Counted from the first letter of the stretch, positions 22,990 through 57,547 are shown. The stretch: DNA of 64,000 bases from Candidatus Kaiserbacteria bacterium (GCA_963699165.1 OY969413.1:660562-724561), one strand, 5' to 3'. The notes: a model not told the origin generated them from the sequence alone. Numbers and translations: made by a program.

Positions 22990-23032
22990 GCAGTTGGCCA
23001 CGAGCGACAACTTTTTGCTACACTGTCCTTAT

Positions 23033-32951: not shown

Positions 32952-33581
32952 TTATTTATTCAAAAATTTGAAACTTTGCCAGACACGCTTCGTTTCGTCA
33001 GGCGAAAGGTTGGTGATTATTCCGCTCCACAGTTGTTTATTGTAGTAGAAAAGCACGTCAGTATTCGGATATTCTCCGATTTGAAATTCTGGGGCTTCCT
33101 TGGAAATTCCAAATTTCACGTTATCGACTATTTGATACTTGAGATTTGGATAAGCAAATCCGGGAGATGGCTGGCTATGAACGAAGGACACGAAATCTTC
33201 TACGGAAGAAAACTGCTTTGGGTAAATGGTAAAAAGTATATTTTTGTAGTTTCCAGCGGCAGTTGGCGCAGAAATATTATTGTTAGCGATAACGATAGTG
33301 GAGGTGCCGGCCGGACCGTTCATTATTAAGTGAATTTCATTTGACGGATATTCGAATGAGAAACCATATGCCGTATCGGTATATTGCGACCAACCTCCTC
33401 CAATATCAGTCACGGTCGCATTCGCGTTTTGTACGTTCTGAGTATTTGGTATTGCCTTAATGCCAGAAACTTGAGATGCACCCTCGGTAGGACTTTTCGA
33501 GATAATTTTGGAATACAAAACCGAGCATACTACTGCGATAAGTAACAGGGCAACGATTGTGGGGGCAGTATAGTTTCTCAT
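32952..33581 (-). CDS. N-terminally anchored secreted protein, family A (GGGWSQYTDTAYGFSFEYPSNEI ... SFKFLN).
   Basis: TM anchor plus conserved motif shared with 36202..36879. Confidence 0.55.
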   Translation of the reverse strand: MRNYTAPTIVALLLIAVVCSVLYSKIISKSPTEGASQVSGIKAIPNTQNVQNANATVTDIGGGWSQYTDTAYGFSFEYPSNEIHLIMNGPAGTSTIVIANNNISAPTAAGNYKNILFTIYPKQFSSVEDFVSFVHSQPSPGFAYPNLKYQIVDNVKFGISKEAPEFQIGEYPNTDVLFYYNKQLWSGIITNLSPDETKRVWQSFKFLNK

Positions 33582-33710
33582 GAATTTAACTAGAAACTGG
33601 GCAGCACTTTCATGCTGCCCAGAGTAACACGGACTAAATCCTCTTGTCGCATTGTGAATTTGGCAATTTAGTAAAAGGGCGGTGCCTGTTTTTTTAAAAC
33701 TCTCGTTGCA

Positions 33711-34379
33711 CTAAAACGAAAATGTAAGTTCTCGCACTTTCTTTGGTACGCCCTGTACCCACACGTATGTGTTGATGGTGAAAGAAGTATCGGTATGCGT
33801 TGCTTGTAGATCTTGCTCGCCTCCCATGCAACCGCCGCAATGATCGTATGTCTCATTGCCAGACAGCTTCGCTCCAGGTAGTTGGGTTTCTGACGACTGA
33901 TCCGGCTTATATGTATAGATGTTTTGGCCTTCTACATATACCGCAACTTTGTCAGTTTTAAATAAGGGTTCCCCGGAAATATATGAATCAGATGTTTGAG
34001 ACATGGAATCAAGAATCTGAATCGGGGCAGGGTTGTCAGTCGGCCGCACGACACTAAAAGCCACATATCGCTTACCTACCGCCGACAACGCAATCCCGTT
34101 CTGCAAATAATATTCTTGATTGTTGGGCTCTTGGGCAAGAAGAATGGCTATAATATCTTTTTCAATTCTGTGGAGAACGTCAGCAGAGAGTGTGGTGTGT
34201 TCGTCAATAAATTGTGGTGTGATTCCCTGCAAGTCAGATTGAAGTTGTGCAGATGCGGCTTGAGCAACAGGCGGGACAGAAATAGTTGTCGTAGAAGAAT
34301 GCAACTTCCATATCGCAAAAACGCAGACAAGCATGGCCGCAGCGATAATAATAACGGCAAGAAGAAAATATTTTTTCAT
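33711..34379 (-). CDS. N-terminally anchored secreted protein, family B (C-terminal LSGNETY ... motif).
   Basis: TM anchor. C-terminal ~120 aa paralogous to 34857..36122. Confidence 0.55.
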   Translation of the reverse strand: MKKYFLLAVIIIAAAMLVCVFAIWKLHSSTTTISVPPVAQAASAQLQSDLQGITPQFIDEHTTLSADVLHRIEKDIIAILLAQEPNNQEYYLQNGIALSAVGKRYVAFSVVRPTDNPAPIQILDSMSQTSDSYISGEPLFKTDKVAVYVEGQNIYTYKPDQSSETQLPGAKLSGNETYDHCGGCMGGEQDLQATHTDTSFTINTYVWVQGVPKKVRELTFSF

Positions 34380-34390
34380 AAAGTTGTTTC

Positions 34391-34852
34391 CTATTTTGTC
34401 GGGGCAGTGATAACGTCCTGCGGGTTTGGGCGAACAATAAAATGCACTATGTAATCAGGCATATCTTTTATTGCACTTTTTACCGTCAAATCCACTTCTC
34501 CGTTACCGTCAAATTCATTATAGTAAGACCAACATGCCGGAGTTGCTTCAGAAGCAAATCCCGGAAGTCCGCCATTGGAAATATATCCTGCGGTTGCGTT
34601 ACCGCTCACTGTTTTGAATTGCAGATTATGATCTTTATCGGGATACACGTCTTTGGGCAGATTGATGAATAATCTCGTCGTATCAATTACATTCTGCGTT
34701 GACCCGTTCGGGATGCCGCCGCACAGAAGCACTTTCGCATCGTCGGATGGGATAGAAGTGGGAGTATGCAATTTCAATATTGCAAAAATACAAGCCAGCA
34801 CGGCGAGCACAACGACGGCGACGAGTATTATCTTTGTATTAGTGACTTTCAT
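34391..34852 (-). CDS. N-terminally anchored small secreted protein (154 aa).
   Basis: TM anchor MKVTNTKIILVAVVVLAVLACIFAIL. Confidence 0.45.
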   Translation of the reverse strand: MKVTNTKIILVAVVVLAVLACIFAILKLHTPTSIPSDDAKVLLCGGIPNGSTQNVIDTTRLFINLPKDVYPDKDHNLQFKTVSGNATAGYISNGGLPGFASEATPACWSYYNEFDGNGEVDLTVKSAIKDMPDYIVHFIVRPNPQDVITAPTK

Positions 34853-34856
34853 ATCT

Positions 34857-36122
34857 TTACTGGAACGAAAGCGTCTTTTGCCCAACCTTTGCATACATAT
34901 TGCCTCCGTCCGGATTAGGTACCAACGTGCTTGAGTCATAGGTAACTATGGTAATGCTGCTGTTCGTATGTGTCTCCCGCAGCGTGATTGGGCCCATGCC
35001 ATCGAGTACGCCAAGGTACGTTTCATTTCCCGAAAGCTGCGAACCTGCAACAAGGGTGGTTGTTGATTGATCGAGTGAGTAGGTATACAGAGCCTGGGTC
35101 GTGACATACAGCGCAATGTTTCTCTTGGGTGCGAGATACAAAGCGATGTTGCCCGGTATCGGTGTAATTTCTCCGTTTTGAGAATCGAGAATTGCGTCAC
35201 TCGATTTGTCTGCGCCCGATTGGGTGAAAAGAATGTACCGCTTACCGATAGCATCGAGCCATATGTCGAATTGGAGCATCTTCTCCGGACTAAGAGGAGG
35301 ATTGTTCGGAAACGCCGCAGAATATTGGGAGCTCATCACTATGGCGACATCCGTAGCTATTTTTTTCTCTTCGGCAGTCAAATTCTGCTCCTGCTGCCAC
35401 GTTGGGACAATGAAATGAGGTGTGACGGGGAGCAAATCCGTCCGCAATTGAGAAAGCGCAACATCATCGGGTGAAGGTTCCGTGGAAGTGCTGAACGCAA
35501 ACGTGCCAATCATTTCTTCGGCACTTTTGTCATAGAGAGGATACCGGATGAGAAGTTTAGTGCCATCGTTATTTTCGACGGTTATAAGATTTTGCGTAAC
35601 GCCGTCCGGAATGATACTGCCATTCCCTTCGGCAGTGTTCGTAAATCCTTTGGTGAGCGAAAAGGAATACGCTCGGTGTCCCGCAAAAGTTATCGGTACG
35701 AGAGCGCCTATCTGCCGGTCTTTTAGGTTCGGGTTCGAATCGTCAACTTGATACTGCCGAAGCGTCGAAGCGAACTGCTGAAGCGGTTCTGCTAGTAGGT
35801 CATCGTATTCTTTACCGGAATGCAGTCCCGTCGCGAATGCTTGTATGTCGATTTCGGTCGTGGTTCCCGGCAAGTAAATCATTGCGTAAGAGGTTTTGTT
35901 TTGAGATTCGTTCTCTTCTTCTATAAAACGATCGACTAGAGAACCTGGCGCATATTTTATCGAATATTTATAGGCGGTGTTGCTGTATATCGACCACGAA
36001 GCAGTATCGACGGTTGCCGTGACTGCGTGAAATTCCCACACCGCAATACACACAAGACCCGCGATAATCGCGAGCGATGCAATTAGAATGATGGGTTTTT
36101 TGTTTTTTGTGGAAAGGGCCAT
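34857..36122 (-). CDS. N-terminally anchored secreted protein, family B (421 aa).
   Basis: TM anchor. C-terminal paralogy with 33711..34379 (GKRYI.F, LSGNETY, TLSF). Confidence 0.55.
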   Translation of the reverse strand: MALSTKNKKPIILIASLAIIAGLVCIAVWEFHAVTATVDTASWSIYSNTAYKYSIKYAPGSLVDRFIEEENESQNKTSYAMIYLPGTTTEIDIQAFATGLHSGKEYDDLLAEPLQQFASTLRQYQVDDSNPNLKDRQIGALVPITFAGHRAYSFSLTKGFTNTAEGNGSIIPDGVTQNLITVENNDGTKLLIRYPLYDKSAEEMIGTFAFSTSTEPSPDDVALSQLRTDLLPVTPHFIVPTWQQEQNLTAEEKKIATDVAIVMSSQYSAAFPNNPPLSPEKMLQFDIWLDAIGKRYILFTQSGADKSSDAILDSQNGEITPIPGNIALYLAPKRNIALYVTTQALYTYSLDQSTTTLVAGSQLSGNETYLGVLDGMGPITLRETHTNSSITIVTYDSSTLVPNPDGGNMYAKVGQKTLSFQ

Positions 36123-36201
36123 ATATTGAAGCCGAGAGGTATGAGATAAGTATACAGAATAGGGAGGTCTCCGATGATAGGAATGTCAAAAAATCCGGCA
36201 C

Positions 36202-36879
36202 CTATTCTCTGTTGAGAAAAGCTATACTCTTTACCATGCGCTGTGTATCGGCTTGAGAAAAACCGCCGATACTCATGAACACCTCTTTATTCTTATGCAT
36301 ATAAATTAAGTTCGTTTCCGGAGGTTGGTCCCATTTATCCGTTTTCGTGATGTAATCGTCCGGCGCAAGAGAACTAAAAATTAATACCCTGACGCCATTC
36401 ATCGTTTCAAACCTAAGGTTCGGAAACTCATCGCTAAGGAGCAGTCCGCGCTTGAGAATTTGGGCCTGCTGTTCAGCAAGCCAGTTATCAATCGTCCCTA
36501 ACCCATCCGTCGATGTTGCAGAAATTTCAATTTCTTTAAAATCTGTTCCCGGTGAAGCGGAATTTACAAAATTGTCCATTTGCATAAAACTCGCATTAAA
36601 GTCGGCGGGATTACTCCCCCAATTCTGACGAATTTCATCTGACGGATACTCGAACGACATGTCCAACGCCGTATTTGTATATCGCGACCATCCTCCGCCC
36701 AAGTCCTGCAAGCTTCCAAATGTCTTCAGGTCTTGCACCGGCGTCGGAATTTTTTGCGCATCCAAAGTATTCAAAGCATTTTGCCGGTACAAAAGAGCGG
36801 CCTCGGTGCCAAGAAGCAATACAAGGAACATCAGCACATAGAAAATATTGCTTCCCACTGGTTTATTAAAAAATCGCAT
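36202..36879 (-). CDS. N-terminally anchored secreted protein, family A (GGGWSRYTNTALDMSFEYPSDEI ... SIAFLN).
   Basis: Paralog of 32952..33581. Confidence 0.55.
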   Translation of the reverse strand: MRFFNKPVGSNIFYVLMFLVLLLGTEAALLYRQNALNTLDAQKIPTPVQDLKTFGSLQDLGGGWSRYTNTALDMSFEYPSDEIRQNWGSNPADFNASFMQMDNFVNSASPGTDFKEIEISATSTDGLGTIDNWLAEQQAQILKRGLLLSDEFPNLRFETMNGVRVLIFSSLAPDDYITKTDKWDQPPETNLIYMHKNKEVFMSIGGFSQADTQRMVKSIAFLNRE

Positions 36880-37844: not shown

Positions 37845-38201
37845 CTAATTTTTTATCTCGGGAATCGGATGTTCTTCGAGGTACTTCGCGAGCGGCGCTT
37901 CAGTCTCGTGCAATTTTGAAATGACGTCATTCCACACGAGCGACAGCAAAATTTCATAATATTCATGTACGACAACATCCCGAAAGCCGGCGATTTTCTT
38001 CCACGGCAAATCTATTTCGGCTCTTGCTTCTTCGGAAACGCGTTTCGCCGTCTCGCCTATCTGTTGCAATTGCATCAAAACGGCATCTTGGGTTTTGCTG
38101 TCCTCGAGAAACTCTTCGTACCTTTGCGTGCCAACATACTGTCGTATGTGCGATATGCATTCGAGCATTTGAGCAATGTACGGACTATCACTCTTTTTCA
38201 T
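37845..38201 (-). CDS. hepT: HepT-like HEPN toxin (DUF86) of a HepT/MntA type VII toxin-antitoxin pair.
   Basis: Rx4HxY motif FRDVVVHEY. Overlaps the end of the upstream MNT gene by 14 nt. Confidence 0.75.
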   Translation of the reverse strand: MKKSDSPYIAQMLECISHIRQYVGTQRYEEFLEDSKTQDAVLMQLQQIGETAKRVSEEARAEIDLPWKKIAGFRDVVVHEYYEILLSLVWNDVISKLHETEAPLAKYLEEHPIPEIKN

Positions 38202-38484
38202 ACAGCATTTTGAGTTCCGGAACGATGTAGGGACGCATAAATTTATTGATAGTTCCTTCGGCCACAACATCGACTTCCCGCTCGAGATTTTGCTCAAGCT
38301 GTTCTTTCAAGTCCATATATGAATACAATCCCATCTGCGGGTCGATTTTAACGAGAATGTCGACATCGCTTTTCGGAGTCGCTTCACCACGCGCAAAAGA
38401 ACCGAATATTTGCGCACGCGTTACGCCGTACTTCTCAAATACGGGGCGTGCCTTTTCTGCGATTTCATCCACTGTCGGTTGCAT
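38188..38484 (-). CDS. mntA: MntA-like minimal nucleotidyltransferase antitoxin (Pol-beta superfamily).
   Basis: GSFARGEATPKSDVDILV nucleotidyltransferase motif. Confidence 0.8.
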   Translation of the reverse strand: MQPTVDEIAEKARPVFEKYGVTRAQIFGSFARGEATPKSDVDILVKIDPQMGLYSYMDLKEQLEQNLEREVDVVAEGTINKFMRPYIVPELKMLYEKE

Positions 38485-41916: not shown

Positions 41917-41950
41917 ATACGCAAATACTACCATATATGGTAGTATTTGC
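41917..41950. promoter_or_regulatory. Perfect 34-bp palindrome ACGCAAATACTACCATAT|ATATGGTAGTATTTGCGT ending 2 nt before the ATG of the YerC/TrpR-like gene. Candidate operator.
   Basis: Read directly. Core ACTACCATATATGGTAGT is shared with 42396..42436. Confidence 0.5.
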
Positions 41951-41952
41951 GT

Positions 41953-42375
41953 ATGAAAAAGAAGACGGAAGAATTGAGTGAGACGGAACGCACACGGACA
42001 CTCGATGCGCTTTATACCGCGGCCGGAGCAGTGCGGGGCCGCTCCGCCATGAAGCTTTTCCTACGAGATCTTCTAACCGAAAGCGAACGAATCATGCTCG
42101 GCAGACGAATTTTAATCGCCCGGCTTCTTCTGCAAGATGATACTTACGATTCCATCAGGCAACGAACAGGAGCGGGGTATTGCACGATTGAACGCGTTCA
42201 TCGATGGCTGAAAGATCAGTTGCCCGGCTATGAAACCGCCATTGCCGCAATGGAGAAAGAGTTCGATGCGCGCGATTCAAAAAAGGAGTATTCTGAAAGC
42301 CCTCTCTTTCGACTAAAGAAAAAATATCCTCTTCATTTTCTTCTTTTTCCGGAGCCGAAACAGAAAAAGAAATAG
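41953..42375 (+). CDS. TrpR-like DNA-binding protein of the YerC/YecD family.
   Basis: TESERIMLGRRILIARLLLQDDTYDSIRQRTGAGYCTIERV matches the YerC/YecD HTH pattern. Divergent from rpsL. Confidence 0.6.
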   Translation: MKKKTEELSETERTRTLDALYTAAGAVRGRSAMKLFLRDLLTESERIMLGRRILIARLLLQDDTYDSIRQRTGAGYCTIERVHRWLKDQLPGYETAIAAMEKEFDARDSKKEYSESPLFRLKKKYPLHFLLFPEPKQKKK

Positions 42376-42460: not shown

Positions 42461-43408
42461 TTACTCAACTGGCTCGCGATACGGGTCGGTCGAATAGGGC
42501 TTTGCGGCAGGCGGGGGCGCAATCGGGGTGCTAGCTGTGGGGGGCAGCGGCGCGGCGGGCGGAAAGATTCGTGAGGGCGGTGCAAACGAAGGGGGCGGCG
42601 GCATTATTCGATTAATAGAAGGGGGCGGCGGAATCCGGTTTATCGACGGCATTGCCGGCGGCATTGCGCCCGGAAGATTCGGCGGAGGCGTTGGGGTGCG
42701 TGCCGGTTGTTGCGAGACGCCATTGTTGAATGAAATATGCGGCTCTTCACGGTCTTCCAAAAGCTTTTCATTTTCGGCAATCGGGCTTTGCGTGTATCGA
42801 GGCGGAAGCGGCGGCGGAACGGCGCGCGGTGCCTGCGCAGGTTGCGGATGCGCGGGTGCCGGATGCGCGGGCGCATGCGGCGCGGGTGACAACGAGGACG
42901 AACGGTCCATGGTCTTTACGAAAATATCGTTGTATTCGGAATGCAGGTAGCGCGGGGACTGCAGCGGCGGCGCATAATTATCAGCGGTCTTTTTTTCATC
43001 CGGACGATTTGCCGCAGGAGCCGGAGGAGCCACGGGCGAAGGCGGCGCGGCTTCCGGAGCTTTCGCGGCAGTTCCCTTTTCCATCTTATCGCGCAGGGGA
43101 ACGAATATTCGTTCATTAACATCTTTCATAATGCCCGTAACGAGCGCGTCCGGAATCCCGCCGTCGTTTTTTAGCGCGGCGGCGAATTCATTCGGGTCTT
43201 CTATGCCGAGCAAAAGCAAAATGACGTTGCGTACTAATACGCCCGCCTGGTCGATATGCAAGGAGTAGGTCGCCGAGAGGTCCTGCACAACGGGAATGTA
43301 TGCGCTGTCCTCGAAATATTGCCGAATCGCCGCCGGAAGAGTCCGCATTATCACATTCAGACTTTCTTCAAACTGGGAATCGTTTATGCTGTTGCCATCG
43401 GTATCCAT
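42461..43408 (-). CDS. Hypothetical protein: ~110-aa N-terminal domain followed by a long Pro-rich low-complexity tail. Last gene of a four-gene envelope operon.
   Basis: ORF track. 10-nt gap to the upstream gene. Confidence 0.45.
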   Translation of the reverse strand: MDTDGNSINDSQFEESLNVIMRTLPAAIRQYFEDSAYIPVVQDLSATYSLHIDQAGVLVRNVILLLLGIEDPNEFAAALKNDGGIPDALVTGIMKDVNERIFVPLRDKMEKGTAAKAPEAAPPSPVAPPAPAANRPDEKKTADNYAPPLQSPRYLHSEYNDIFVKTMDRSSSLSPAPHAPAHPAPAHPQPAQAPRAVPPPLPPRYTQSPIAENEKLLEDREEPHISFNNGVSQQPARTPTPPPNLPGAMPPAMPSINRIPPPPSINRIMPPPPSFAPPSRIFPPAAPLPPTASTPIAPPPAAKPYSTDPYREPVE

Positions 43409-43417
43409 ATGAATAGA

Positions 43418-45706
43418 TTACTTCCCTTTTTCTTCTCCGCCCTCTTTCTTTTCCTCCTTTTCCCCACCCTCCTCTTTTTCCGCATTCTTTGCCGCCTTTC
43501 TGATGGCCGCGAGAATTCGCTCATTGTCATCCGAGGCCTTAAGGTCGGAATCCGACTTTTTGCCCGCAAGACGCTTCTTAATCGCTAGCGCGGCGTCTCT
43601 ATTTGCTTTCGGATCTACGCCCAGCACGTGTGCGCCACCCGCATAAATCGCCGCGGCGGCGGGTATTGCCGCGGCACCGGTGCCGACAGCAGCGGATGCA
43701 AACCCCGCCGCAAATAGAGAGCGAGGAAGCGAACCGGCGGCACTGCCCACCGCTCCCATAGCTTTCCCGGATAGGGTGCTCCCCGCATTCTCGAGATTTT
43801 CCGCATATTTCGTTTGTCTTGCAAGGGCAGAATTTGGTTCCTCAATGCGTTTTCTCGTATCCGCTTCTTCTTTGGTGGCCGCCGCCAAGTTTCTCGTCGC
43901 TTCTTCAAGGTCGGTCGCCGCGGTAGCAAGTTTGGTTTCGTTACCGGCAAGGTCTGCTTTCGCCTTCGTTAATTCCGCCTCTTTGGCGGGGTCGAATGAA
44001 CGGCCCTTCACCGCCTTTTCCGCTTCAAGACCCCGTATCATCTCTTTGATTCTCGTTGATTCCTGCGCGATGGTTGTATGCTCGCTTTTAGCCGCGTTGT
44101 ATGTATCTTTCGCGCCCCTGCTTGCGTCCTCCGCCCGCTGAATCTCGGCGGTGTCTTTTTCGGTTAGTTTGCGCGCCGAAATTGTTTTAGCATAATCTGT
44201 ACGGGCTTTCGTAGCAGCTTCTTCGGACTGCCTGTACCCGCCCTTGTAAGCGGTCCCCGCATCAATTTTGGCCGACTTGAGCCCCGCCTTCACCGGAGCA
44301 ATGCCGCGAATGTCCCAATTACCGGTTGCACCCTTATCAGCAAGGGCCGCGAGATGTCTTCCAGCTTCGGTTGTGCCAAGCTTGGAAGAGCGAATTCCGC
44401 GTGCAGCACCCTGCAAAGCGCGTCCGGCGGTATTGCGCATCACAAAAGAGGAGGTGCCCCCCATGATTTTGCCGGTCATTTGCGTCGCCTGCTTCGTCCA
44501 AAACGCTTTCAACTGGCCGGCGGCAACGACGACGTAGCCGAGAAGACCCATTGCAACGAGGAAGGAAAGGAACACACCGGCGAAGCCAGGTACCGTCGCG
44601 GCATTCGGGTTCCCAGTGAAAGCCGTCCACGCATCGCTTGCGCATTGCGACGCGCCGGAAGTGGCCGAACAGGTTCCCATAAGAAACTGCGCATCCGTGA
44701 TGACCGCAAGCGCTATATAGAGGAGAAGGAGGAGTATTGGAGCCGTTATGGTTTGGTCGGAAAGCATCTTCCACCACCATTTAGCGGTGCCCTGCAACTG
44801 CGGCACGATGTATCCGGCAAAACCGAGCGGCGAAAGAATGATGAGGAAAAGCAGCATAACGAAACGCGCGATGAGTATGAAGGCAAGCGTGAACAAAACG
44901 AACGTCGCAACAAGAAAAATGATGCTCGCCATAAAGCCGATGAGCAATGTGTTCCCCGCCCTGAAAAACCCGTTGTCCGTCTGCGAGTGTTCGTAGATGG
45001 TGGCCAAGCCGATATTTCCCAAAATTTTGTCTGAAATGCTTTCGTTGCCCGCAGTATGCGCCGGCTGACCGCCGTTGATTTGCGTATAAAATTCGGTTGC
45101 AAAAAGATTGCCGACATCGACAATCGCTTCGGATATAAATAGCGAGAAATTGAGAAAAATCGCGGCAATGAGCATCATCGGGAGCATTTTTTTGCCTCCG
45201 CCGTACCAGTTCACGTTAAGAATGGTCGTGATGCCGACGGCGAGAAAACCGAAGATGAGCAGAATGTTGCCGATATCGCGGAGAATGCGCCACGCAACGC
45301 CGACGGCGGTGAGCTGCTTCACGTAGCTGCCCATAATGACGATGGTGAAGTACACCGCATTGTCGAGCGTGATTGCGGCAATGCCGAGAAGCCACGCGAA
45401 CAGCTTCATGATTTGCAGCATCGCCAAACTGAACGGGTCGCTCGCATCTGCGGAAGCGCCTGTTGGATTTGTGGGCTGATCGGTTGCCGAAGGCGTATAT
45501 GTCGACGAGCCGGGAACACCTCCGTAAGCCGTTGGCGACATACAAACTGCCGCATTCGGATTGCCGTCTTCTCCGGAGTATTCGCAAACATCGCCTCCCG
45601 TACATGCCGGTGTGCAGGTTTGGGCGTGCGCAAGGCGCGCAAATCCGATTGCCCCGCCGGATGAGAGCGAGAGCGTTATGAGCAAAAGAATGAGGAATCG
45701 TTTCAT
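43418..45706 (-). CDS. TrbL/VirB6-like polytopic membrane protein: signal peptide, Cys-rich segment, ~7 TM helices, ~370-aa hydrophilic coiled-coil C-terminal tail ending in a KE-rich stretch.
   Basis: Architecture by eye, including a Trp-containing TM cluster (AKWWWKML). Start taken at the signal peptide MKRFLILLLITLSLSSGG. Confidence 0.4.
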   Translation of the reverse strand: MKRFLILLLITLSLSSGGAIGFARLAHAQTCTPACTGGDVCEYSGEDGNPNAAVCMSPTAYGGVPGSSTYTPSATDQPTNPTGASADASDPFSLAMLQIMKLFAWLLGIAAITLDNAVYFTIVIMGSYVKQLTAVGVAWRILRDIGNILLIFGFLAVGITTILNVNWYGGGKKMLPMMLIAAIFLNFSLFISEAIVDVGNLFATEFYTQINGGQPAHTAGNESISDKILGNIGLATIYEHSQTDNGFFRAGNTLLIGFMASIIFLVATFVLFTLAFILIARFVMLLFLIILSPLGFAGYIVPQLQGTAKWWWKMLSDQTITAPILLLLLYIALAVITDAQFLMGTCSATSGASQCASDAWTAFTGNPNAATVPGFAGVFLSFLVAMGLLGYVVVAAGQLKAFWTKQATQMTGKIMGGTSSFVMRNTAGRALQGAARGIRSSKLGTTEAGRHLAALADKGATGNWDIRGIAPVKAGLKSAKIDAGTAYKGGYRQSEEAATKARTDYAKTISARKLTEKDTAEIQRAEDASRGAKDTYNAAKSEHTTIAQESTRIKEMIRGLEAEKAVKGRSFDPAKEAELTKAKADLAGNETKLATAATDLEEATRNLAAATKEEADTRKRIEEPNSALARQTKYAENLENAGSTLSGKAMGAVGSAAGSLPRSLFAAGFASAAVGTGAAAIPAAAAIYAGGAHVLGVDPKANRDAALAIKKRLAGKKSDSDLKASDDNERILAAIRKAAKNAEKEEGGEKEEKKEGGEEKGK

Positions 45707-45713
45707 GGTGTTA

Positions 45714-47342
45714 CTATCCTCCGCCATCGCCGGAAACCGGATTGGAGGTTGCTGGTGCGCAAAGAGCGGCGGCGGCATTCGCATTTGCGGTTATGAGGTT
45801 CATCTGGTCCTGAAGCGTGCCGCCCGAGACGGTGAGCGAACCGACGGGATTCGCTTTCGCTTGTCCGGTCGTTTGTGCGTCCCCTTGCGCGGTTTGGACA
45901 TCTGCCGCGGTCGGCGTGTCTCCCATGAGCGTTGACAGGTCGGTTGAAAACGTCGTGATTTCTTCCTGCGTGGTCGGACTGCTTTCCGCGTTTACCTTTG
46001 CGGCGAATTGCCGCGTGGCTTCCGCGGTCGATATCGACGTCTGCGCTTGCGTTATCACCGGCGTTATCTCGCTATCAAGCGCCGCCTGCGCTTGCGCGGC
46101 CGTCACTCCGCCGCCGAATACGCTCGCGTTCGCGGCGCATGCCGTGCCCGCCGCGCGGACGGCTGACTCGGCCGCATTCGCCGCCGAAAGAACGGTATTC
46201 CACGCGCTTTCATAGGAATTTATATTCGCAATGGTGTCGTTTACCACGGAATTCGCCGCGCTCGACGCTGAAGACGACGCGGTCTGGGTAGGCGCGCTGT
46301 TGACGTACTGCTCGATGAGCGAACTCGAGCCGCTGCCCGAGGACGGCTGGGTGGAACCGAAGAGACCTCCTTCGACGCCGCCGATGACTTTGTTGAGAAT
46401 CGAGGACATGAGGTCCGAAATCAAATCATTAATCTGGTTCGCCGAAACGATTTTGTCGACATTCGCGCCAAGTGATTTGTTGAGGGACGCAACGATGACC
46501 GAACCCGGAGTATCTACGGTGCCCTCGCTGCCGTCCGCGTTCACGCATTGCACGGGAGCAACCGCGTTAACCGCCGTGCTTGATTCGCACGCATATGAGG
46601 GTTTGCCGTCTTCCATTCCGGTTTGCGAGCAGGTTTGTCCGCCCGGACATGTGCCGCAAGGCCCTCCGGCGCTCGAAACATTCGTGCTTCCGCCGCCGCA
46701 CCATGACATGAAACCTTGTCCCCAATTCAGCTGTTGCTGTTTGGTCGATTGCGCACCTCCTACAAGCGAGGCCAGCTGATTCTGCGAATTCTGATACAGC
46801 ATGAACGGATTATTCTGGTCCTGCGTCGTGAGAGCAAGCCAAGCCGATACGCCGCCCTTTGTCCAATCGCCCGCGAGAAAGTCGTTGATAGTCGCCGGGT
46901 TAAGAGTGCACTGATTTTTCACCCAAAATCCGCCGGTACCGGTGTTCTGCAGATAATTAGTGCGCAACGATGAGACAATTGACGATGCAAACGGGGAGTT
47001 TGAATTCTGCATAAATTGAGTTAAAAATGCATTTGCTTGCGTGTCGCCGATATTTTGCAGAAGTTGCGACAGATTTTGCACATACATCGGACTGCTGTTG
47101 TTGCCCGGATTATTTACGAAATTCACTACACTGCCGGTAATGGATTGAATTAATTTTGAAGAAACCTCGAACTGTAGCGCGTCGAGAAATTCGTGGGCTA
47201 TTTTGCTCCAAAGCGTAGAACCCTCTGTTAGGAAATCGGCCACCGGCACGCCGAGTTGCGCATGCGCCGGACGCGGAGCACTCAAAAAAGCGGCCGGCGC
47301 GACGAGGATGAAAACCGCGATGAGCGCAAGCTGTTTCCTCAT
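45714..47342 (-). CDS. Secreted Gln/Asn/Ser-rich protein (542 aa) with signal peptide and a Cys cluster. Second gene of the operon.
   Basis: Signal peptide MRKQLALIAVFILVAPAAFLSAPRPAHAQ. 4-nt ATGA overlap with the upstream gene. Confidence 0.5.
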   Translation of the reverse strand: MRKQLALIAVFILVAPAAFLSAPRPAHAQLGVPVADFLTEGSTLWSKIAHEFLDALQFEVSSKLIQSITGSVVNFVNNPGNNSSPMYVQNLSQLLQNIGDTQANAFLTQFMQNSNSPFASSIVSSLRTNYLQNTGTGGFWVKNQCTLNPATINDFLAGDWTKGGVSAWLALTTQDQNNPFMLYQNSQNQLASLVGGAQSTKQQQLNWGQGFMSWCGGGSTNVSSAGGPCGTCPGGQTCSQTGMEDGKPSYACESSTAVNAVAPVQCVNADGSEGTVDTPGSVIVASLNKSLGANVDKIVSANQINDLISDLMSSILNKVIGGVEGGLFGSTQPSSGSGSSSLIEQYVNSAPTQTASSSASSAANSVVNDTIANINSYESAWNTVLSAANAAESAVRAAGTACAANASVFGGGVTAAQAQAALDSEITPVITQAQTSISTAEATRQFAAKVNAESSPTTQEEITTFSTDLSTLMGDTPTAADVQTAQGDAQTTGQAKANPVGSLTVSGGTLQDQMNLITANANAAAALCAPATSNPVSGDGGG

Positions 47343-48370
47343 GGCGTTGCCGTCGTGCTCGCCTCCTCCAGATTTTGCTCGAAGTTCACGATGGAGGCGC
47401 CCGGTTCTCCGTTTTCGATCGTAACGCCTTCGGCCGCATATTCGTCATCCATGTCGGAAAATGCCCGCACGAGCGCGGAAACCGCGCCTTCATATTGACC
47501 GAGCGCGAGCATGGTCGCGAGCGGGTCCGTGTTGACCTCGGCAAAATCGCTCGATATTTCTCCGATACGCGCCGCCGCGTTTATGATTTGCAGGTCTTCC
47601 GACAGCAATTCTTTCGGCACCGGTAGTGCCGAAAGGCCCGCGGCCGAATCGCGGAAGGCCTTTGCTTTTTTCGCGACGCTGTCGAGGGCGGTGGCATCGC
47701 CGTTCATGGCGTCCTGCAGGTAGGCCAGCGCGCTTTTCGGCAAATGGGAATCATTCTTCGCCAGTACGCCCTCGGCGAGAACGGCAAAATTCTTAAGCGC
47801 GTCCGGACCCGAACCGGACACCACGAGGTCGGACGACGATTTGAAATCGGGCGCGGATGCGACGCTGCTCTCGAGTCCGCTCAGCGCTTGCTGTTCAACG
47901 GTGTTTATCTGATCTTGAGTGAGGTCGGCGCCGTTATTTGCGTTTTTCGCAGCGATATAAAGCGTGAGGAAACTTTTTGCAAACGTATCGGTGAGCGTCC
48001 CTTCAGGCGCGGCGGCCGGAGCGTCCGGGGTCCCGGTTTCGGCGCTCGACGTTGCCACCGGAACATCCGCAATTGCCTTCGGAACGACCATCCCCTGCGC
48101 AACGGCCTGACCGTCCGTCATGCCCAAATGAAAGTAATCGGTTGTCGTACTATTTAAAGGAATGCCGTACAGCGTCTTTTCCCAGTCGGGCAATCCGTCG
48201 CCGTTCGAATCCTTTGATGCGATTTGCTGCAAGAGCGCGGTCTCGGTCGATGCCTGCGCGATAGGCGGAGAAGCTACGCCCTTCGCGAGCAGATACGCGC
48301 CGACGACGAGTCCGACCGACAATAGCGTCGCGGCAAATATTCGCCAATTTCCAACTATTCTTTCCCCCAT
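47339..48370 (-). CDS. N-terminally anchored bitopic protein (343 aa), first gene of the operon. Position and size are compatible with a VirB8-like role, but no homology was verified.
   Basis: TM helix IFAATLLSVGLVVGAYLL then a hydrophilic domain. Confidence 0.45.
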   Translation of the reverse strand: MGERIVGNWRIFAATLLSVGLVVGAYLLAKGVASPPIAQASTETALLQQIASKDSNGDGLPDWEKTLYGIPLNSTTTDYFHLGMTDGQAVAQGMVVPKAIADVPVATSSAETGTPDAPAAAPEGTLTDTFAKSFLTLYIAAKNANNGADLTQDQINTVEQQALSGLESSVASAPDFKSSSDLVVSGSGPDALKNFAVLAEGVLAKNDSHLPKSALAYLQDAMNGDATALDSVAKKAKAFRDSAAGLSALPVPKELLSEDLQIINAAARIGEISSDFAEVNTDPLATMLALGQYEGAVSALVRAFSDMDDEYAAEGVTIENGEPGASIVNFEQNLEEASTTATP

Positions 48371-48481
48371 AGTATCACTTGAAAGTATAGCAGTAGCCGG
48401 CCGAAAAAAGTCCAGACGCCTGTATATAAAAGTGCATTACGCGCGACGAAAAGCGGACCGCGGGCATGGTACGATATTTCC

Positions 48482-49459
48482 ATGCGAATATTCTTCTCCG
48501 CTTTGTCGATTTTCCTGCTGTTTTCGTACGGACCCCGCGCATTCGCGCAAACGAGCGCGCTAAACATCTTTTCGTCAAACCTGTCCATCGGCGCTTCCGG
48601 CGTATCGGTAACCGCGCTCCAAGAGGAGCTCAACCGCGACCCCGATACGCAAATCGCAAGCGCGGGACCCGGTTCTCCGGGAAACGAGACGGGATATTTC
48701 GGCGCGCTCACGAAAGCGGCCGTCATACGATTCCAAAATAAATACGCGGCGGAAGTTTTGGCGCCCGCCGGCCTTGCGGAAGGGAGCGGGTTCGTTGGTT
48801 TGTATACCCGGACGAAATTGAACGCGCTTGCCGCGACGCCACCCGCCACGCCCGCGGGCGGGAATACGACATCGTCCTCGCCGTCCGCTTCTTCGACCGC
48901 GGCGCAACAGACCTCCGCTGCCGCTCAAAATCCGAATACCGCGAATTTGGACGCGTTTATCGCAACCGTGGACGCCGAAGGAGTCAAAGAGGGATTCTCT
49001 TCGTCGAGCATCGCCGCCGCCAACGAAAAAATACGGGAAGTCGCGGCGACCACCACCGATTTGCGGGCAAAGTTCATCAACGTCCTGCAACAGAATTCCC
49101 GCGTCGCCAAAAGAGACGATTCCATTGCGGCGAAAATTCTTGCTTTTTTAACGCGACTGTTCGTTCCCGAACGCGCATACGCTTCCTTTGTGGGCGTTCC
49201 GTTCGGGGGCATCATCACGTTCGCCCTGCCCTGCAATGACGGATGGAATGTCGCCATCACGCCCTTGCCGCCCACGATGGTTTCCCTGCTCACCTATATT
49301 ATGGGTTCGCAGGCGTTCCCGTACTACACGCTGAACGGTGCGCATCCGGGTATGGGCGTTGTCGGCTCGTATACTCCCGGTCCGGGCGCATGCGTCCTCG
49401 GCATCATCCCCATCCCGTCCGAGGGCATAATCAGCCCGTTCACGAGTTCATCTCCTTAG
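48482..49459 (+). CDS. Secreted peptidoglycan-binding protein (PG_binding_1-like domain plus a C-terminal domain), divergent from the envelope operon.
   Basis: Signal peptide. LQEELNRDP...GPGSPGNETGYFGALTKAAVIRFQ matches the PG-binding domain in the 890-aa protein. Confidence 0.55.
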   Translation: MRIFFSALSIFLLFSYGPRAFAQTSALNIFSSNLSIGASGVSVTALQEELNRDPDTQIASAGPGSPGNETGYFGALTKAAVIRFQNKYAAEVLAPAGLAEGSGFVGLYTRTKLNALAATPPATPAGGNTTSSSPSASSTAAQQTSAAAQNPNTANLDAFIATVDAEGVKEGFSSSSIAAANEKIREVAATTTDLRAKFINVLQQNSRVAKRDDSIAAKILAFLTRLFVPERAYASFVGVPFGGIITFALPCNDGWNVAITPLPPTMVSLLTYIMGSQAFPYYTLNGAHPGMGVVGSYTPGPGACVLGIIPIPSEGIISPFTSSSP

Positions 49460-52303: not shown

Positions 52304-53431
52304 TTGCCGCAGAGCGCGAGATTGGATACATTCGAGATTTTGGAGCGATGCGCGGTTTGCGTCGTTAGCGTTTCGTTTGTCATCTTTGGCGCAATCCTCA
52401 TTCCCTCTCGGGTCAGCGCGTTCTGGCCTTTTTCGACCGATGCCGATGCGGCCGCAAGCTCGGTGCAGCCCGTCTCGGCAACTCCCGTTCTCCAGGCCTC
52501 CACAAATACCGACCCGAACCCTTACAAGGGCCTTTTGGCAGATGCCGACGTATCAAGCGACAATGCGCTGCTAGCCCAGGCCGGCCCCTCAGGCACAACG
52601 GCCGACATTGTAGGAACCACGCAAATCGACCGCATTTCGGTCTATGTCGTCCGCCCGGGCGATACGCTCTCGGATATAGCAAATATGTTTGGCGTGTCGA
52701 AAAACACGATTCTTTGGGCGAACAACTTGAAAAGCGCGAAGGACGTGCACCCGGGCGATACGCTCATTATCCTTCCGATTACCGGCATTCAGCACGTCGT
52801 GGTCTCCGGCGATACGCTGAAGTCGCTTGCGAAGAAGTTCAACGGCGACCCGGACGAAATCGCGGAGTTTAACGGTCTCGACCCAAATGAGGCGCTCGAT
52901 ATCGGCTCGACCGTTATCATTCCGGGCGGCGAAGTGGTTGAATCGGAGACGCCGACCGCGCCGAAAACGAAGAGTTCTTCGCAAAAGACCTCCGCGCGCA
53001 AAGCATCGAGCTCGAGCGAACCGTATCTTGGCGGCAGCGGAGCTCCGCAAGACGGCTATTACGGCAACCCGCTTCCGGGAGCGATTCTCACGCAAGGCAT
53101 TCACGGCTGGAACGCCGTCGATTTGGGTGCGCCGCGCGGCACGCCGATTCACGCGGCGGCCGATGGAACGGTCATTATCGCCAAAAACGGCGGGTGGAAC
53201 GGCGGCTATGGCAACTATGTTGTTATCACGCACGATAACGGCACTGAAACGCTCTACGCGCATATGAGCAGTGCGATTGTTTCTCCGGGAGAATCAGTTT
53301 CCGCGGGACAAACCATCGGCTACGTCGGCATGACCGGACTCACGACCGGACCGCACCTCCACTTCGAAGTGCGCGGCGCGGCAAATCCATTCCGCGATTG
53401 CAGCGAGGGCTCGGTGTGCTCGCCTGAATAG
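52304..53431 (+). CDS. Membrane-anchored peptidoglycan hydrolase: two LysM domains plus a C-terminal M23 (LytM) metallopeptidase domain.
   Basis: LysM motifs YVVRPGDTLSDIA and HVVVSGDTLKSLA. M23 HxxxD and HxH motifs (HGWNAVDLGAP ... GPHLHFEV). Confidence 0.85.
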   Translation: MPQSARLDTFEILERCAVCVVSVSFVIFGAILIPSRVSAFWPFSTDADAAASSVQPVSATPVLQASTNTDPNPYKGLLADADVSSDNALLAQAGPSGTTADIVGTTQIDRISVYVVRPGDTLSDIANMFGVSKNTILWANNLKSAKDVHPGDTLIILPITGIQHVVVSGDTLKSLAKKFNGDPDEIAEFNGLDPNEALDIGSTVIIPGGEVVESETPTAPKTKSSSQKTSARKASSSSEPYLGGSGAPQDGYYGNPLPGAILTQGIHGWNAVDLGAPRGTPIHAAADGTVIIAKNGGWNGGYGNYVVITHDNGTETLYAHMSSAIVSPGESVSAGQTIGYVGMTGLTTGPHLHFEVRGAANPFRDCSEGSVCSPE

Positions 53432-54429: not shown

Positions 54430-57400
54430 TTAGGTGTTGCCGCCCCGCCCGTTCCCCCACCCAAACCAACCGACGCGATTATCGAGCCCGTGCGTGATTG
54501 CTTTCTGTGTGTTGCCGAAATCATCATGCTTCGACACCGCGCCCGAATATATCAGCACCGGCCCCGGATGGTCCGTCTGTCGCCATCCTGCCTGCGATAC
54601 TTCGGAGAGTTTGTAGACGCCCGGACCGAGATTCGCAAACGAGTAGTTGCCGTTTGCGTCGGTAACGGTCGATATAGTCGAGCCGTCGGGTTTTTTGAGC
54701 TGAATCGTCCAGCCCGCAAGTCCGCCTTCGCCGTTATCCTTGTGTCCGTTGCCGTTTTTGTCGTTGTACTTCTCGCCGGAAATTGTTCCGAGTTTGAAGT
54801 TGCCGAAGTTTTTGTTTTTTGCGATTTGTCCTGCGGCAAGCGCGATGTCATATGTGTCGCTTATCGCTATTTTCGACGGATACGTAGACGTCCAGCCGGT
54901 TTGCTGAACTTCACGCACGTGGTACGTGCCCGCCGCAAGTCCGGTGAAGCGATACGCGCCGTGGCTGTCGGTCACGGTCGACGGCTCGCCGGGATCCAAT
55001 ATCCCGTTATTGTTGGTATCGAGATAGATAGTCCATCCCGAAAGTTTTTTCTCCCACGGACTCTCAAACGCCCTGCCGCCGCCATCCCAATCCTCGAACT
55101 TCACGCCGCGGATTTCTCCGAGTTTCGGATTCTTGGTGTTGGTAACGATACACGTTGTCGGTGCGCCTGCGGCAATGACGACGCTTGAGCATTCGTTATC
55201 GCTCAGCGTCCAGCCCGTTGTCGGCGTTTCACTCACGTGATACGTGCCCGGTGCGAGGTTAGCGAATGTTTGACTCGAGCCCGTTCCGCCGGTCGCATTG
55301 CCGGTCGTCGTAATCTGGAAGCTGCCGAGGTCGCCGGTGAATTTGAATGTGCCGTTGCCGCCGACGGTGTCTTTCTCGACGATAAGGCCGCCGGTGGTCG
55401 GACACGATTCGTTGTACACGAGCACATATTCATCGGCAGCCAATCCGTAGAGATTGACGGCCGTGGTTGTCGCCTGCGATGCAGCATCCGCGAAACTCAC
55501 CGAGCTCGTTTTGTAGCCGTCGAGGAGGTATTTGCCCGGCGTGCAGAGCGCGGGACTTGCCACGACTTGGCTTGCGGTATCGGTGACTTCGGCGGTGCCG
55601 TAATTTGCAGGTGCCTGCATCGGTGCCGTGTCTGCGCCGTAGAGGTCGGCCGCGCCGCCGAAGTTATTTCCGAGCACATAATTTCCCGTCGATGTCGCGC
55701 CGCCGTTTAAGTTCGCGGCCTGCCACACCGCCGTCATCGGGAACTGATAATTATTTGCCGATGCTGCCGCCGCTTTCTGTCCGTTCAGATATTTCAATAC
55801 ATGAACTTTGAGCGTCGGCGCTTGAATGCAGGTCTTATTCCAGACAATCACGTACTCATCACTTTGCAGATTCGTGAAGTTGGGAGCGTCGGCCGTCGGC
55901 GTTCCCTGCTCTGCCGCGGCCAGCGTCGCGCCCGCAGTGTATCCGACAAGCGCGAATGGATTGCCCGCATCGCACGTTGTCGGGCTGTTTTCACTCGTTG
56001 TATAGCTTGCGCCGGGAGTCATGTCGACCGTCACCGCCTCATACGGATTCGGGCTGTTGAAACCGATCGGACCGAGCGCATACGAACCGGTTCCCTCTCC
56101 GGTGCTTGTTGAATTCCATGTCGCCGTCATCGAGAACGACGTGCTGCTTGCGCTCGCAGCAGTCGCCATCGAACCGTTCAGGAATTTATCAATCGTCACT
56201 TTCACCGGCGGAGGAATTTTGTCATACGCGACACAATTGACCGTTGCATTTGGCGAAACAAACGTAAGTTCCTGATTGTCATTGGTGTTCGAAGTGTCCC
56301 CGTCTCCCTGGCAATAGAGACCCAGAATGTCACCGGCGGCGAGCTGCTGATTACTGCTATCGGTTTCGACAACCAGATACCGTCCGGTTGCCGGAAGGTT
56401 CGGAATCGTCAGAACGCCGCTCCCATTCGTTGCCCCGCCCGCCGTTAGCGGCGCGCTTAACTCGGGATACGGAGCATTCGCATCGATTTGCGTTCCATGC
56501 ACGTAGCCGAATGTTTTGCCCGAATCCGGAACGCATCCGGTCGGAACGGTCTGCCCGACCCCGTTTGCGGCCCGCGTTACCGTCGTGCCGTCGGGACATG
56601 CGTATTTGGTAATAACTATGGTACCCGTTTCCACCGGCGTCGGACCCGAGAGAAGCGAAAGATTGTCGATATAGTAGCCCTTCCCGAGGTCAGCCGGCGT
56701 CGCCGTGCCGCGCGCCTGGAAAATAACCGTCTTTACGATGCGCGGGCTCTGTTCGGAACTTTGTTCCGGGTCATAACGGTAGAAGTCCTCCCAACTGCCG
56801 CCCGTGTGTTTCAATACGCCGTCGATGTACACCTTAACGACGTCGTTTGCCGCACCGTCCGCAACATCCATCGTGAGTTTGATTGTGTGCGGAGCGGTAC
56901 GGCTAATCGTACCGACATCGTATTCGTTGAATGTCGCCGTTGTGCCGACCGGCCCGGGGTCCGTCACGTCGTCAAAGAATACGTGTATGCCGTCCTCCAA
57001 ATCATCGAACCGCAAGTAACTCATGCGCGAACCGTCGCCGCGGTCGGGCGATACGGAAAGGTGCATGCCCGGCTGTTGCGTTGCTTGCGTCGACATAATG
57101 TCAAACTGCACTTCGAAATGCGTTTGCTTGGTTCCGGCGGCGAAACTGCCGGCGGTTGCCGAGGTCTCTCCAACGGAATTAATCAGCGGCTTTGCAAACA
57201 CCCAATCGCCGAAAGTCCCGCTTGTAACCGCATCCGACATTCTGAAACTTTGCGCCCCGAAACTTGCGGGCAGCGTGCTTGTCGCCACCACCGCCTGGTC
57301 ATAGGTTGGATTGACCGCACTGCTCCATCCGTCTTGCCCGCTAATTGAACCGACCGTATAGGTTGGGCTCTCGAAATTTATCGGCCCGACCGTATCTGCG

Positions 57401-57480
57401 GAAACGATACCCGGAAGAAAGAACAAACTCGCGGCCGCAGCTGCAGCCGCGACCGACACCGCACATTTAGTGACATTCAT
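54430..57480 (-). CDS. Very large secreted surface protein (~1000 aa) with C-terminal tandem SdrD-B/Cna-B-type repeats.
   Basis: Signal peptide. Repeats with DxDGxG...GxY (GVKFEDWDGGG...GAYRF.GLAAGTYHV and GEKYNDKNGNGHKD...GNYSFANLGPGVYKL). Confidence 0.7.
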   Translation of the reverse strand: MNVTKCAVSVAAAAAAASLFFLPGIVSADTVGPINFESPTYTVGSISGQDGWSSAVNPTYDQAVVATSTLPASFGAQSFRMSDAVTSGTFGDWVFAKPLINSVGETSATAGSFAAGTKQTHFEVQFDIMSTQATQQPGMHLSVSPDRGDGSRMSYLRFDDLEDGIHVFFDDVTDPGPVGTTATFNEYDVGTISRTAPHTIKLTMDVADGAANDVVKVYIDGVLKHTGGSWEDFYRYDPEQSSEQSPRIVKTVIFQARGTATPADLGKGYYIDNLSLLSGPTPVETGTIVITKYACPDGTTVTRAANGVGQTVPTGCVPDSGKTFGYVHGTQIDANAPYPELSAPLTAGGATNGSGVLTIPNLPATGRYLVVETDSSNQQLAAGDILGLYCQGDGDTSNTNDNQELTFVSPNATVNCVAYDKIPPPVKVTIDKFLNGSMATAASASSTSFSMTATWNSTSTGEGTGSYALGPIGFNSPNPYEAVTVDMTPGASYTTSENSPTTCDAGNPFALVGYTAGATLAAAEQGTPTADAPNFTNLQSDEYVIVWNKTCIQAPTLKVHVLKYLNGQKAAAASANNYQFPMTAVWQAANLNGGATSTGNYVLGNNFGGAADLYGADTAPMQAPANYGTAEVTDTASQVVASPALCTPGKYLLDGYKTSSVSFADAASQATTTAVNLYGLAADEYVLVYNESCPTTGGLIVEKDTVGGNGTFKFTGDLGSFQITTTGNATGGTGSSQTFANLAPGTYHVSETPTTGWTLSDNECSSVVIAAGAPTTCIVTNTKNPKLGEIRGVKFEDWDGGGRAFESPWEKKLSGWTIYLDTNNNGILDPGEPSTVTDSHGAYRFTGLAAGTYHVREVQQTGWTSTYPSKIAISDTYDIALAAGQIAKNKNFGNFKLGTISGEKYNDKNGNGHKDNGEGGLAGWTIQLKKPDGSTISTVTDANGNYSFANLGPGVYKLSEVSQAGWRQTDHPGPVLIYSGAVSKHDDFGNTQKAITHGLDNRVGWFGWGNGRGGNT

Positions 57481-57547
57481 AATATTTTCGCCAGCGAATT
57501 TATCGAATAATGCGCTCATTTACGCACAGTCGGTATGTGGAAATCAT

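Follow-up and report, generated by a model that had tools for sequence, protein, structure and literature searches.

Probable VirB6-containing half of the patescibacterial chromosomal type IV secretion system, encoded between ksgA and rpsL in a Kaiserbacteria-like genome

Chromosomal type IV secretion systems (T4SSs) have been described in Patescibacteria, and their VirB4 proteins form a clade nested in the mating-pair formation class MPF-FATA (Quinonero-Coronel et al. 2025, PMC12102498; McLean et al. 2020, PMC7427843; Wang et al. 2023, PMC10633639). Surveys centred on virB4 found VirB6 to be scarce and VirB8 to be almost absent, the 2025 survey having a VirB6 tally of only 480 proteins from 3,035 genomes (PMC12102498). 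In Southlakia epibionticum, the only species in which the essentiality of a patescibacterial T4SS was tested, the cluster SEML1_0006-0019 is essential for epibiotic growth and has no recognisable relaxase or coupling protein. A 2024 review calls the role of these systems 'completely unknown', and the cargoes proposed in the literature, all speculative, include effectors for export or delivery and host material or host nucleotides for uptake. We examined a 64,000-nucleotide stretch of DNA from a Candidatus Kaiserbacteria bacterium (GCA_963699165.1 OY969413.1:660562-724561; the window), a Kaiserbacteria-like genome of the class Paceibacteria/Minisyncoccia, in which four genes on the minus strand (g1 to g4, 48370-42461) lie between ksgA and rpsL. 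The original prediction, made from the sequence alone, had described them as an envelope operon with a TrbL/VirB6-like polytopic protein, possibly a T4SS-like module lacking ATPases. Our results indicated that g1 to g4 are very probably the VirB6-containing half of the known chromosomal patescibacterial T4SS, which is related to the MPF-FATA class of monoderms.

Calling of open reading frames (ORFs) in the window recovered all five predicted genes with their coordinates and close packing, namely, g1 (47339-48370; 343 aa), the first gene of the operon, g2 (45714-47342; 542 aa), g3 (43418-45706; 762 aa), and g4 (42461-43408; 315 aa) on the minus strand and a PG_binding_1 gene on the plus strand. 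Genes g1 and g2 overlap by 4 nt, and gaps of 7 nt and 9 nt separate g2 from g3 and g3 from g4. The start of g3 was placed at the ATG at 45706, which has GGAGGA just before it and is also the start given by NCBI; the longest ORF begins at 45784. NCBI proteins WAN50_04780 (g3) and WAN50_04785 (g2) have 100% identity to the window proteins. Hydropathy and composition agreed with the earlier descriptions of a bitopic g1, a secreted, Cys-containing g2, a polytopic g3 and a Pro-rich g4. Homologues of g3 numbered 555 in the protein collection, with all source-named matches labelled as Patescibacteria-type or unclassified bacterium, and the four-gene order recurs in 80 loci; judged by this conservation, g1 to g4 are real genes and not chance ORFs. 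A promoter scan gave nothing above the shuffled expectation, and a terminator scan gave no clear operon terminator. None of g1 to g4 in the window had a match in a Pfam scan, and no VirB4 or VirD4 family was matched among the 42 longer window ORFs, as the original prediction had stated.

Evidence for membership of a T4SS came from the neighbourhood of the operon in relatives. A scan with one genome per species gave 80 loci. The most distant g2 homologue (P0187; 29% identity) is encoded on a 54-kb contig (L086) with the order M23/LysM peptidase gene (minus strand), uvrD, ksgA, g1, g2, g3, and g4, and the L086 proteins matched window g1 to g4 with E values of 2e-28, 1e-35, 1e-43, and 2e-9, respectively. 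In this contig g4 is directly followed by genes for PrgI/VirB3 (PF12666), a TraC-like protein in the TrsD position (PF26593), VirB4 (PF19044/DUF87), proteins of 122 aa, 326 aa, 196 aa (pilin-like), and 401 aa, and YidC. Two species loci among the 80, L059 and L075, neither of which had an rpsL match, showed the same continuation after g4, and their VirB4 shares 82% identity with the L086 protein. In all three relatives g4 sits between g3 (VirB6) and PrgI, placing the g3 orthologues two genes upstream of PrgI-TrsD-VirB4, an association that is absent from the window itself. This linkage is the decisive evidence that the operon belongs to a T4SS, and it upheld the relationship that had been suspected from the sequence. 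Table S3 of the survey gives the pattern VirB6, one unassigned gene, VirB3, TrsD, and VirB4 in two genomes (genes 531/533/534/535 of GCA_000505065.1 and 293/295/296/297 of GCA_000990175.1; PMC12102498), and the gene order of the contiguous loci matches the survey's 'VirB6' rows, the comparison being one of order only. KsgA is among the commonest virB4 neighbours in the survey (PMC12102498), which is explained by the continuity of ksgA and g1 to g4 with VirB3 and VirB4.

The ATPase genes missing from the window were found at a second locus. A search with the L059 VirB4 detected a 610-aa protein (P0219) with 87% identity and matches to PF19044, PF01935, and PF12846; it was taken as a VirB4 of the patescibacterial type, and its placement in the published clade is putative. 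The records of this VirB4, of g2 exactly as in the window, and of a 769-aa version of g3 all give a 993,452-nt contig from the same sources. On a shorter contig, the gene for P0219 is in the context of M50 peptidase, G6PD, PrgI (E 4e-11), TraC-like protein, VirB4, 300-aa protein, 338-aa protein, and T4SS_pilin (E 1.2e-8). Both halves of the system are present on a 159,247-nt contig of a relative, with g1 to g4 at ~52 to 74 kb (L022) and the ATPase half at ~102 to 124 kb (L091). The two are ~48 kb apart, and the ATPase half adjoins dnaA in the order VirB3-TrsD-VirB4-234 aa-332 aa-pilin-407 aa-yidC-rnpA-rpmH-dnaA-dnaN. A third genome has the same ATPase half. PrgI, TraC-like protein, VirB4, and T4SS_pilin were all present in L088, L091, L092, and L086, and no relaxase family was matched among the called genes of these four loci. 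The ATPase halves encode no protein with more than three transmembrane-like segments, and hence the system has no VirB6 candidate other than g3. Overall, VirB4 was detected in the genome of the window and in no fewer than five others of the split lineage, and it was scored in 5 of the 6 operon-carrying genomes of the published dataset (PMC12102498). With VirB4 provided in trans and with the linkage in three relatives, these results indicated a split T4SS and not an ATPase-free apparatus. Of the two explanations offered in the original prediction, a stripped-down or novel machine lacking ATPases was not supported, and the location of the ATPases outside the window was borne out by the VirB3-TrsD-VirB4-pilin genes at the second locus of the same genome.

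A different outcome of such a split would be an autonomous envelope complex, in which g1 to g4, although derived from a T4SS, now act independently of VirB4 as a surface or adhesion scaffold or as a passive conduit, with expression tied to the adjacent ribosomal str operon. The operon stands stably apart from the ATPase and abuts rpsL in ~70 species-level loci, with no ATPase within 10 kb, and one operon-carrying draft genome of the published dataset has no detected VirB4; both observations would fit such a complex. So would the divergence of the two halves. VirB4 is 82 to 95% identical across lineages (L059, L075, L086, L088, and L091), g3 is only ~30 to 45% identical, and the identities of g2 and g4 across the same lineages are lower still, so that evolutionary rates differ greatly between the cytoplasmic motor and the envelope half. 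We nevertheless consider autonomy to be unlikely, as these four genes run directly into VirB3-TrsD-VirB4 in three lineages, VirB4 is present in the window's genome and in at least five others of the split lineage, and no VirB6 is encoded in the ATPase half, each half lacking what the other supplies.

The assignment of g3 to the VirB6/TrbL family was examined by sequence and structure comparisons. Hydropathy and composition indicated a signal peptide, a short Cys-rich ectodomain, a polytopic domain (~aa 94 to 397; 44516-45427, minus strand), and a long Ala/Lys/Glu-rich C-terminal tail of ~365 aa (43421-44515, minus strand), with 6 Cys in all. The polytopic domain has roughly 7 hydrophobic helices, a KWWWK motif, and one Cys pair in a loop; five or more transmembrane helices are the mark of VirB6, and in addition to the ~7 hydrophobic segments, long helices were present at aa 91 to 398 in an AlphaFold2 (AF2) model. 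In an alignment of 120 g3 sequences, 42 columns were invariant, most of them within the polytopic domain. Searches of g3 orthologues against 24,736 Pfam families gave only two recurring families, TrbL (PF04610) and TrbL_4 (PF19597), each of which matched 5 of the 36 orthologues, with E values down to 2.2e-5 and 4.7e-6, respectively. The scores of 24.8 to 26.6 bits were just below the curated cutoffs of 25.9 (TrbL) and 27 (TrbL_4). A majority consensus of the membrane domain matched TrbL with an E value of 3.3e-4 (20.9 bits) over profile positions 25 to 214 of 215 and TrbL_4 with an E value of 2.3e-3.

The AF2 model of g3 covered residues 1 to 470 and was built from the 120-sequence alignment. 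The mean predicted local distance difference test score (pLDDT) was 76.3, with a predicted template-modelling score (pTM) of 0.69; in the polytopic domain, means of 10-residue blocks ranged from ~64 to 92 and were mostly 80 to 92. A Foldseek search of this model, a check that had been suggested with the original prediction, placed chains of the R388 stalk complex (TrwJ/VirB5-TrwI/VirB6) at ranks 1 to 5 among 350,542 PDB chains, with probabilities of 0.85 to 1.0, E values of 0.018 to 0.14, and template-modelling (TM) scores of 0.37 to 0.45 on the target. Of the top 12 places, 8 went to T4SS entries, among them the Legionella DotA-IcmX protochannel. The stalk chains were read as TrwI/VirB6 and not as VirB5 because 260 to 272 residues are modelled and ~300 columns aligned, which is longer than VirB5. 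Taken with the VirB3-VirB4 linkage, the sub-threshold TrbL matches and the Foldseek ranks supported the VirB6-like character originally proposed for the polytopic protein. The scores are individually nonsignificant but concordant, and all point one way, towards g3 being a very divergent VirB6.

The alternative that the operon is unrelated to T4SSs would require the resemblance of g3 to TrbL/VirB6 to be generic to helical membrane proteins, with g1 to g4 being a lineage-specific envelope or cell wall module. No match reaches a curated threshold, the Foldseek E values are 0.018 or higher, and g1, g2, and g4 match nothing known; these observations speak in its favour. Against it are the recurrence of the two TrbL families alone among all of Pfam and the origin of all of the top five PDB chains from the VirB5-VirB6 stalk complex. 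The continuity of the operon with VirB3, TrsD, VirB4, and pilin genes in three genomes largely refutes this alternative, which we regard as very improbable.

Several results weighed against the assignment of g1 to g4 to the patescibacterial T4SS. Window g3 itself has no Pfam match, all of the orthologue matches to TrbL are below the curated cutoffs, and the Foldseek E values are not significant alone and accompany a low TM score (0.29 on the query). The operon proteins had no sequence similarity to PrgH, PrgL, PrgD, or PrgK of pCF10, and a tblastn search of 72,556 plasmids with the g3 membrane domain gave one chance match (E 7). No match was found between g2 and VirB5/TrwJ, and the roles proposed for g1, g2, and g4 are drawn only from where the genes lie and from protein topology. 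The 993-kb contig was taken to be the window's own genome from the identical proteins and the matching contig record, and VirB4 was not detected in 1 of the 6 operon-carrying draft genomes of the published dataset. In the wider comparison, hidden Markov model and hhalign searches against pCF10 PrgD to PrgM and PcfA to PcfC and against Tn916 proteins gave no meaningful match. A published observation is that patescibacterial VirB6 proteins fit the MPF-T profile and not the PrgH profile (PMC12102498), and the absence of PrgH similarity in g3 is in agreement with this.

Compared with the VirB6/TrbL family (PF04610 and PF19597; TrwI of R388, PDB 7O3V/8RT9), g3 is likewise polytopic, with at least five helices, aligns weakly to the TrbL profile over near its full length, and has the R388 stalk chains read as TrwI as its best structural matches. 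A large hydrophilic domain near the C terminus is shared with the extended VirB6 proteins (PMC12857230). In contrast to described members, g3 scores below all of the family thresholds, has an N-terminal signal peptide and a Cys-rich ectodomain, carries a 365-aa tail with its own conserved motifs, and is from a monoderm host. The motifs of the tail in the family consensus are LDRGAKASFDVRG and GIDAG.AQKGGYR, and D465 and R467 are invariant. The tail is predicted to be cytoplasmic because an odd number of transmembrane segments follows the signal peptide; a PDB profile search with it gave generic helical or coiled-coil noise only. A neighbour-joining tree of g3 was star-like, with the contiguous loci L059 and L075 nested among the split ones, so that it favours neither arrangement as ancestral.

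Conservation of the operon was examined by calling ORFs in each of 84 related loci and comparing them with the window proteins. The same neighbourhood had first been seen in three relatives, before the species-wide scan. The order g1-g2-g3-g4 was invariant across the 80 species-level loci. Among the 84 loci, g3 was present in 84, g2 in 80, g4 in 78, and g1 in 75, the missing genes being mostly at contig ends. The co-occurrence of the four genes in relatives is therefore essentially universal, and the absence of conserved co-occurrence, which had been named as a result that would overturn the original prediction, was not observed. Upstream, ksgA was found in 69 loci and, downstream, rpsL-rpsG-fusA in ~70. 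The wider conserved frame is comM, M23/LysM peptidase gene, uvrD, and ksgA; the M23/LysM neighbour was detected in 56 loci in the conserved string M23-uvrD-ksgA-g1.

The divergent PG_binding_1 gene (48482-49459, plus strand) encodes a secreted protein of 325 aa with an N-terminal PG_binding_1 domain (Pfam E 3.1e-5, 24.5 bits against a cutoff of 23). This protein had been proposed as a VirB1-type partner. No catalytic (hydrolase) domain was detected in it in the Pfam scan, and its homologues were present in only 26 loci, compared to 69 loci for ksgA; the proposal was therefore not supported, and the gene is probably a variable neighbour and not a fixed part of the system. A gene three genes off (52304-53431, plus strand), with two LysM domains (E 2.1e-25) and Peptidase_M23 (Pfam E 1.6e-32), may be a better candidate for a VirB1-like, cell wall-opening function, since the survey ties VirB1 homologues with M23 and LysM domains to virB4 in Paceibacteria and its Table S3 lists, for one genome, a LysM-bearing 'VirB1' 10 genes before VirB4 (PMC12102498).

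Additional genes were present near this frame in some relatives. Four loci (L016, L021, L029, and L066) have an insertion encoding a polytopic protein of ~697 aa and a membrane protein of ~205 aa on opposite strands, located between uvrD and ksgA or, in L021, between ksgA and g1. Other relatives have a polytopic protein of ~530 aa at the same spot. These uvrD/ksgA-g1 insertions were checked for a hidden ATPase and encode polytopic membrane proteins with no Walker A motif. On the other side of the operon, between g4 and rpsL and on the opposite strand from g4, the window carries a TrpR-like gene (41917-42375; PF01371, E 1.8e-14) for which none of the 84 related loci has an equivalent. The start of this gene is overlapped by a perfect palindrome with a 17-bp stem (41917-41954).

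The partner proteins of g3 were less easily related to known families. Hydropathy indicated that g1 has a single hydrophobic segment (aa 11 to 29) as an N-terminal anchor. It carries an extracellular Ca-binding motif of the thrombospondin type 3 (TSP3) kind, DSNGDGLPDWEK, and the bacterial version of this repeat (TSP3_bac) was matched in 25 of 41 g1 orthologues (best E 1.1e-7), being the sole recognisable feature. In the alignment of these 41 orthologues g1 was the best conserved of g1, g2, and g4, with a mean column identity of 57%, and its conserved domain of ~200 aa appears by eye to be helical and rich in Ala and Leu. A profile search gave no PDB relative of g1, and nothing was matched to VirB8-type families, PrgL, or PrgD. 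The bitopic NTF2-like scaffolds VirB8, PrgL, and TcpC share with g1 an N-terminal anchor and a location of the bulk of the protein outside, but g1 has no sequence similarity to them and carries the TSP3 Ca-binding repeat. The identification of g1 as VirB8 was consequently not sustained, the bitopic topology alone being shared.

The g2 protein has a signal-like N terminus, 9 Cys, and a variable Cys-rich insert; its composition is 13% A, 12% S, 9% G, 9% T, 8% N, and 8% Q, and all 66 of its homologues are uncharacterised. An AF2 model had pLDDT values above 90 over most of aa 356 to 530, forming a C-terminal helical bundle, and low values elsewhere. VirB5/TrbJ (TrwJ of R388) was considered as a counterpart, as g2 is likewise secreted and contains a helical bundle, and its gene lies directly upstream of that for the VirB6-like protein. 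A Foldseek search of the PDB, TrwJ (7O3V) included, gave no VirB5 match and only generic helical bundles (best E 2.6), and a PDB profile search gave no significant match and no VirB5. The identification as VirB5 was not supported. An idea that the g2 N terminus ('GVPVADF...') is TrbJ/VirB5-like was also dropped, having neither Foldseek nor profile support. In contrast to VirB5, g2 carries a Cys-rich insert and is more than twice the usual size; the resemblance is positional only.

The g4 protein has no transmembrane segment and no signal peptide, and 19.7% of its residues are Pro. A conserved N-terminal domain of ~105 aa is followed by a Pro-rich linker with LLEDHEEPHI and by a C-terminal DPYREP, of which D308-P-Y-R-E312 is invariant in an alignment of 38 orthologues. 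No Pfam or PDB relative of g4 was detected. Overall, the analogies of the operon and its neighbours to VirB8, VirB5, and VirB1 are positional at best.

An arrangement of the machine can be proposed from these observations. In some Paceibacteria the whole system is encoded as a single string of ksgA, g1, g2, g3 (VirB6), g4, VirB3/PrgI, TrsD (TraC-like), and VirB4, continuing with a small membrane protein, a protein of ~330 aa, a VirB2-like pilin, a protein of ~400 aa, and yidC. In the lineage of the window this string is broken between g4 and virB3, with g1 to g4 between ksgA and rpsL and the ATPase and pilin genes at a second locus, which in a relative is ~48 kb off beside yidC-rnpA-rpmH-dnaA. 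The g3 protein would serve as a platform in the membrane, the part played by VirB6 at the foot of the R388 stalk, and pilin subunits and substrates would pass through or alongside it; the VirB2-like pilin from the other locus would be assembled on this platform. The cytoplasmic tail of g3 and the cytoplasmic g4 protein may dock the VirB3-TrsD-VirB4 motor encoded in trans. By analogy, the secreted and putatively disulfide-bonded g2 would cap the outer face of g3, a position and a gene order relative to VirB6 that are those of VirB5, and g1 would scaffold the complex across the wall by means of its one-helix anchor.

A more far-reaching combination of proposals is tentative, and we would put it at somewhat less than an even chance. 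Under this combination g1, g2, and g4 may be unrecognised, lineage-specific T4SS subunits, namely, nonhomologous stand-ins for VirB8 and VirB5 together with a cytoplasmic adaptor, with the conserved DPYREP end of g4 possibly docking the ATPase. VirB6 may be present in many more systems than the published 480 proteins from 3,035 genomes, because proteins of the g3 type are missed by HMMs and can be encoded a long way from virB4. Finally, the location of the detached half directly before rpsL could tie production of the envelope half of an essential machine for host interaction to the expression of ribosomal proteins.

The locus was compared as a whole with the described patescibacterial systems (PMC12102498, PMC7427843, and PMC10633639). 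It shares with them the VirB3(PrgI)-TrsD-VirB4 core and a VirB2-like pilin, a chromosomal location near dnaA/yidC, KsgA as a frequent neighbour, VirB6 two genes before VirB3, and the lack of a relaxase or coupling protein nearby. It differs from them in that the VirB6 half lies outside the ±20-coding-sequence neighbourhood of virB4 used in the survey, that the window's VirB6 escapes detection by Pfam, and that no T4SS component family named in the survey text and table rows examined corresponds to g1, g2, or g4. Distant chromosomal loci for the genes of one machine are also known from the scattered T4SS islands of Rickettsia (PMC12102498), but the split found here has a single break, at g4/virB3, and the detached half is fixed before the str operon in many species. 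The patescibacterial T4SS and the VirB6 homologues within it were already known. The present locus adds a detached VirB6 half that stands before the str operon throughout a large clade, a VirB6 type (g3) whose divergence is such that it is often missed by Pfam and, presumably, by the survey profiles, and three conserved, unannotated partners in g1, g2, and g4. The locus reveals the whereabouts of the VirB6 half in a large clade of Paceibacteria, makes g1, g2, and g4 candidates for missing T4SS parts, and indicates that neighbourhood-based inventories undercount components when a T4SS locus is split. Its use is in annotation and in the choice of targets for structure prediction or genetics, and no new kind of machine is implied.

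Other features were observed elsewhere in the window. A perfect 844-nt inverted repeat (2534-3377 and 27049-27892) consists of two IS1595-family transposase genes that flank 23.7 kb of the ribosomal protein/secY cluster, and a recombinational inversion of this segment is conceivable. A second insertion sequence (IS) element, with an rve integrase, has two copies (15525-16570 and 21899-23010) that form a direct repeat with 98% identity across the reported 300 nt; both copies lie within the cluster of ribosomal protein genes in this reduced genome. In the str operon region, beside fusA, there is a pair of toxin-antitoxin type (37845-38484), made up of genes for a nucleotidyltransferase (MNT) and a HepT-like RNase, and relatives have other toxin-antitoxin genes (HicA and HigB) at comparable positions. 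Between tuf and this pair there are five consecutive ORFs on the minus strand (32952-36879; 209, 222, 182, 421, and 225 aa) with no Pfam match. Two predicted surface proteins are also encoded, one of 890 aa (5856-8528) with PG_binding_1, beta-helix, and fn3-like domains and one of 1029 aa (54430-57519) with SdrD/SpaA prealbumin-like domains.

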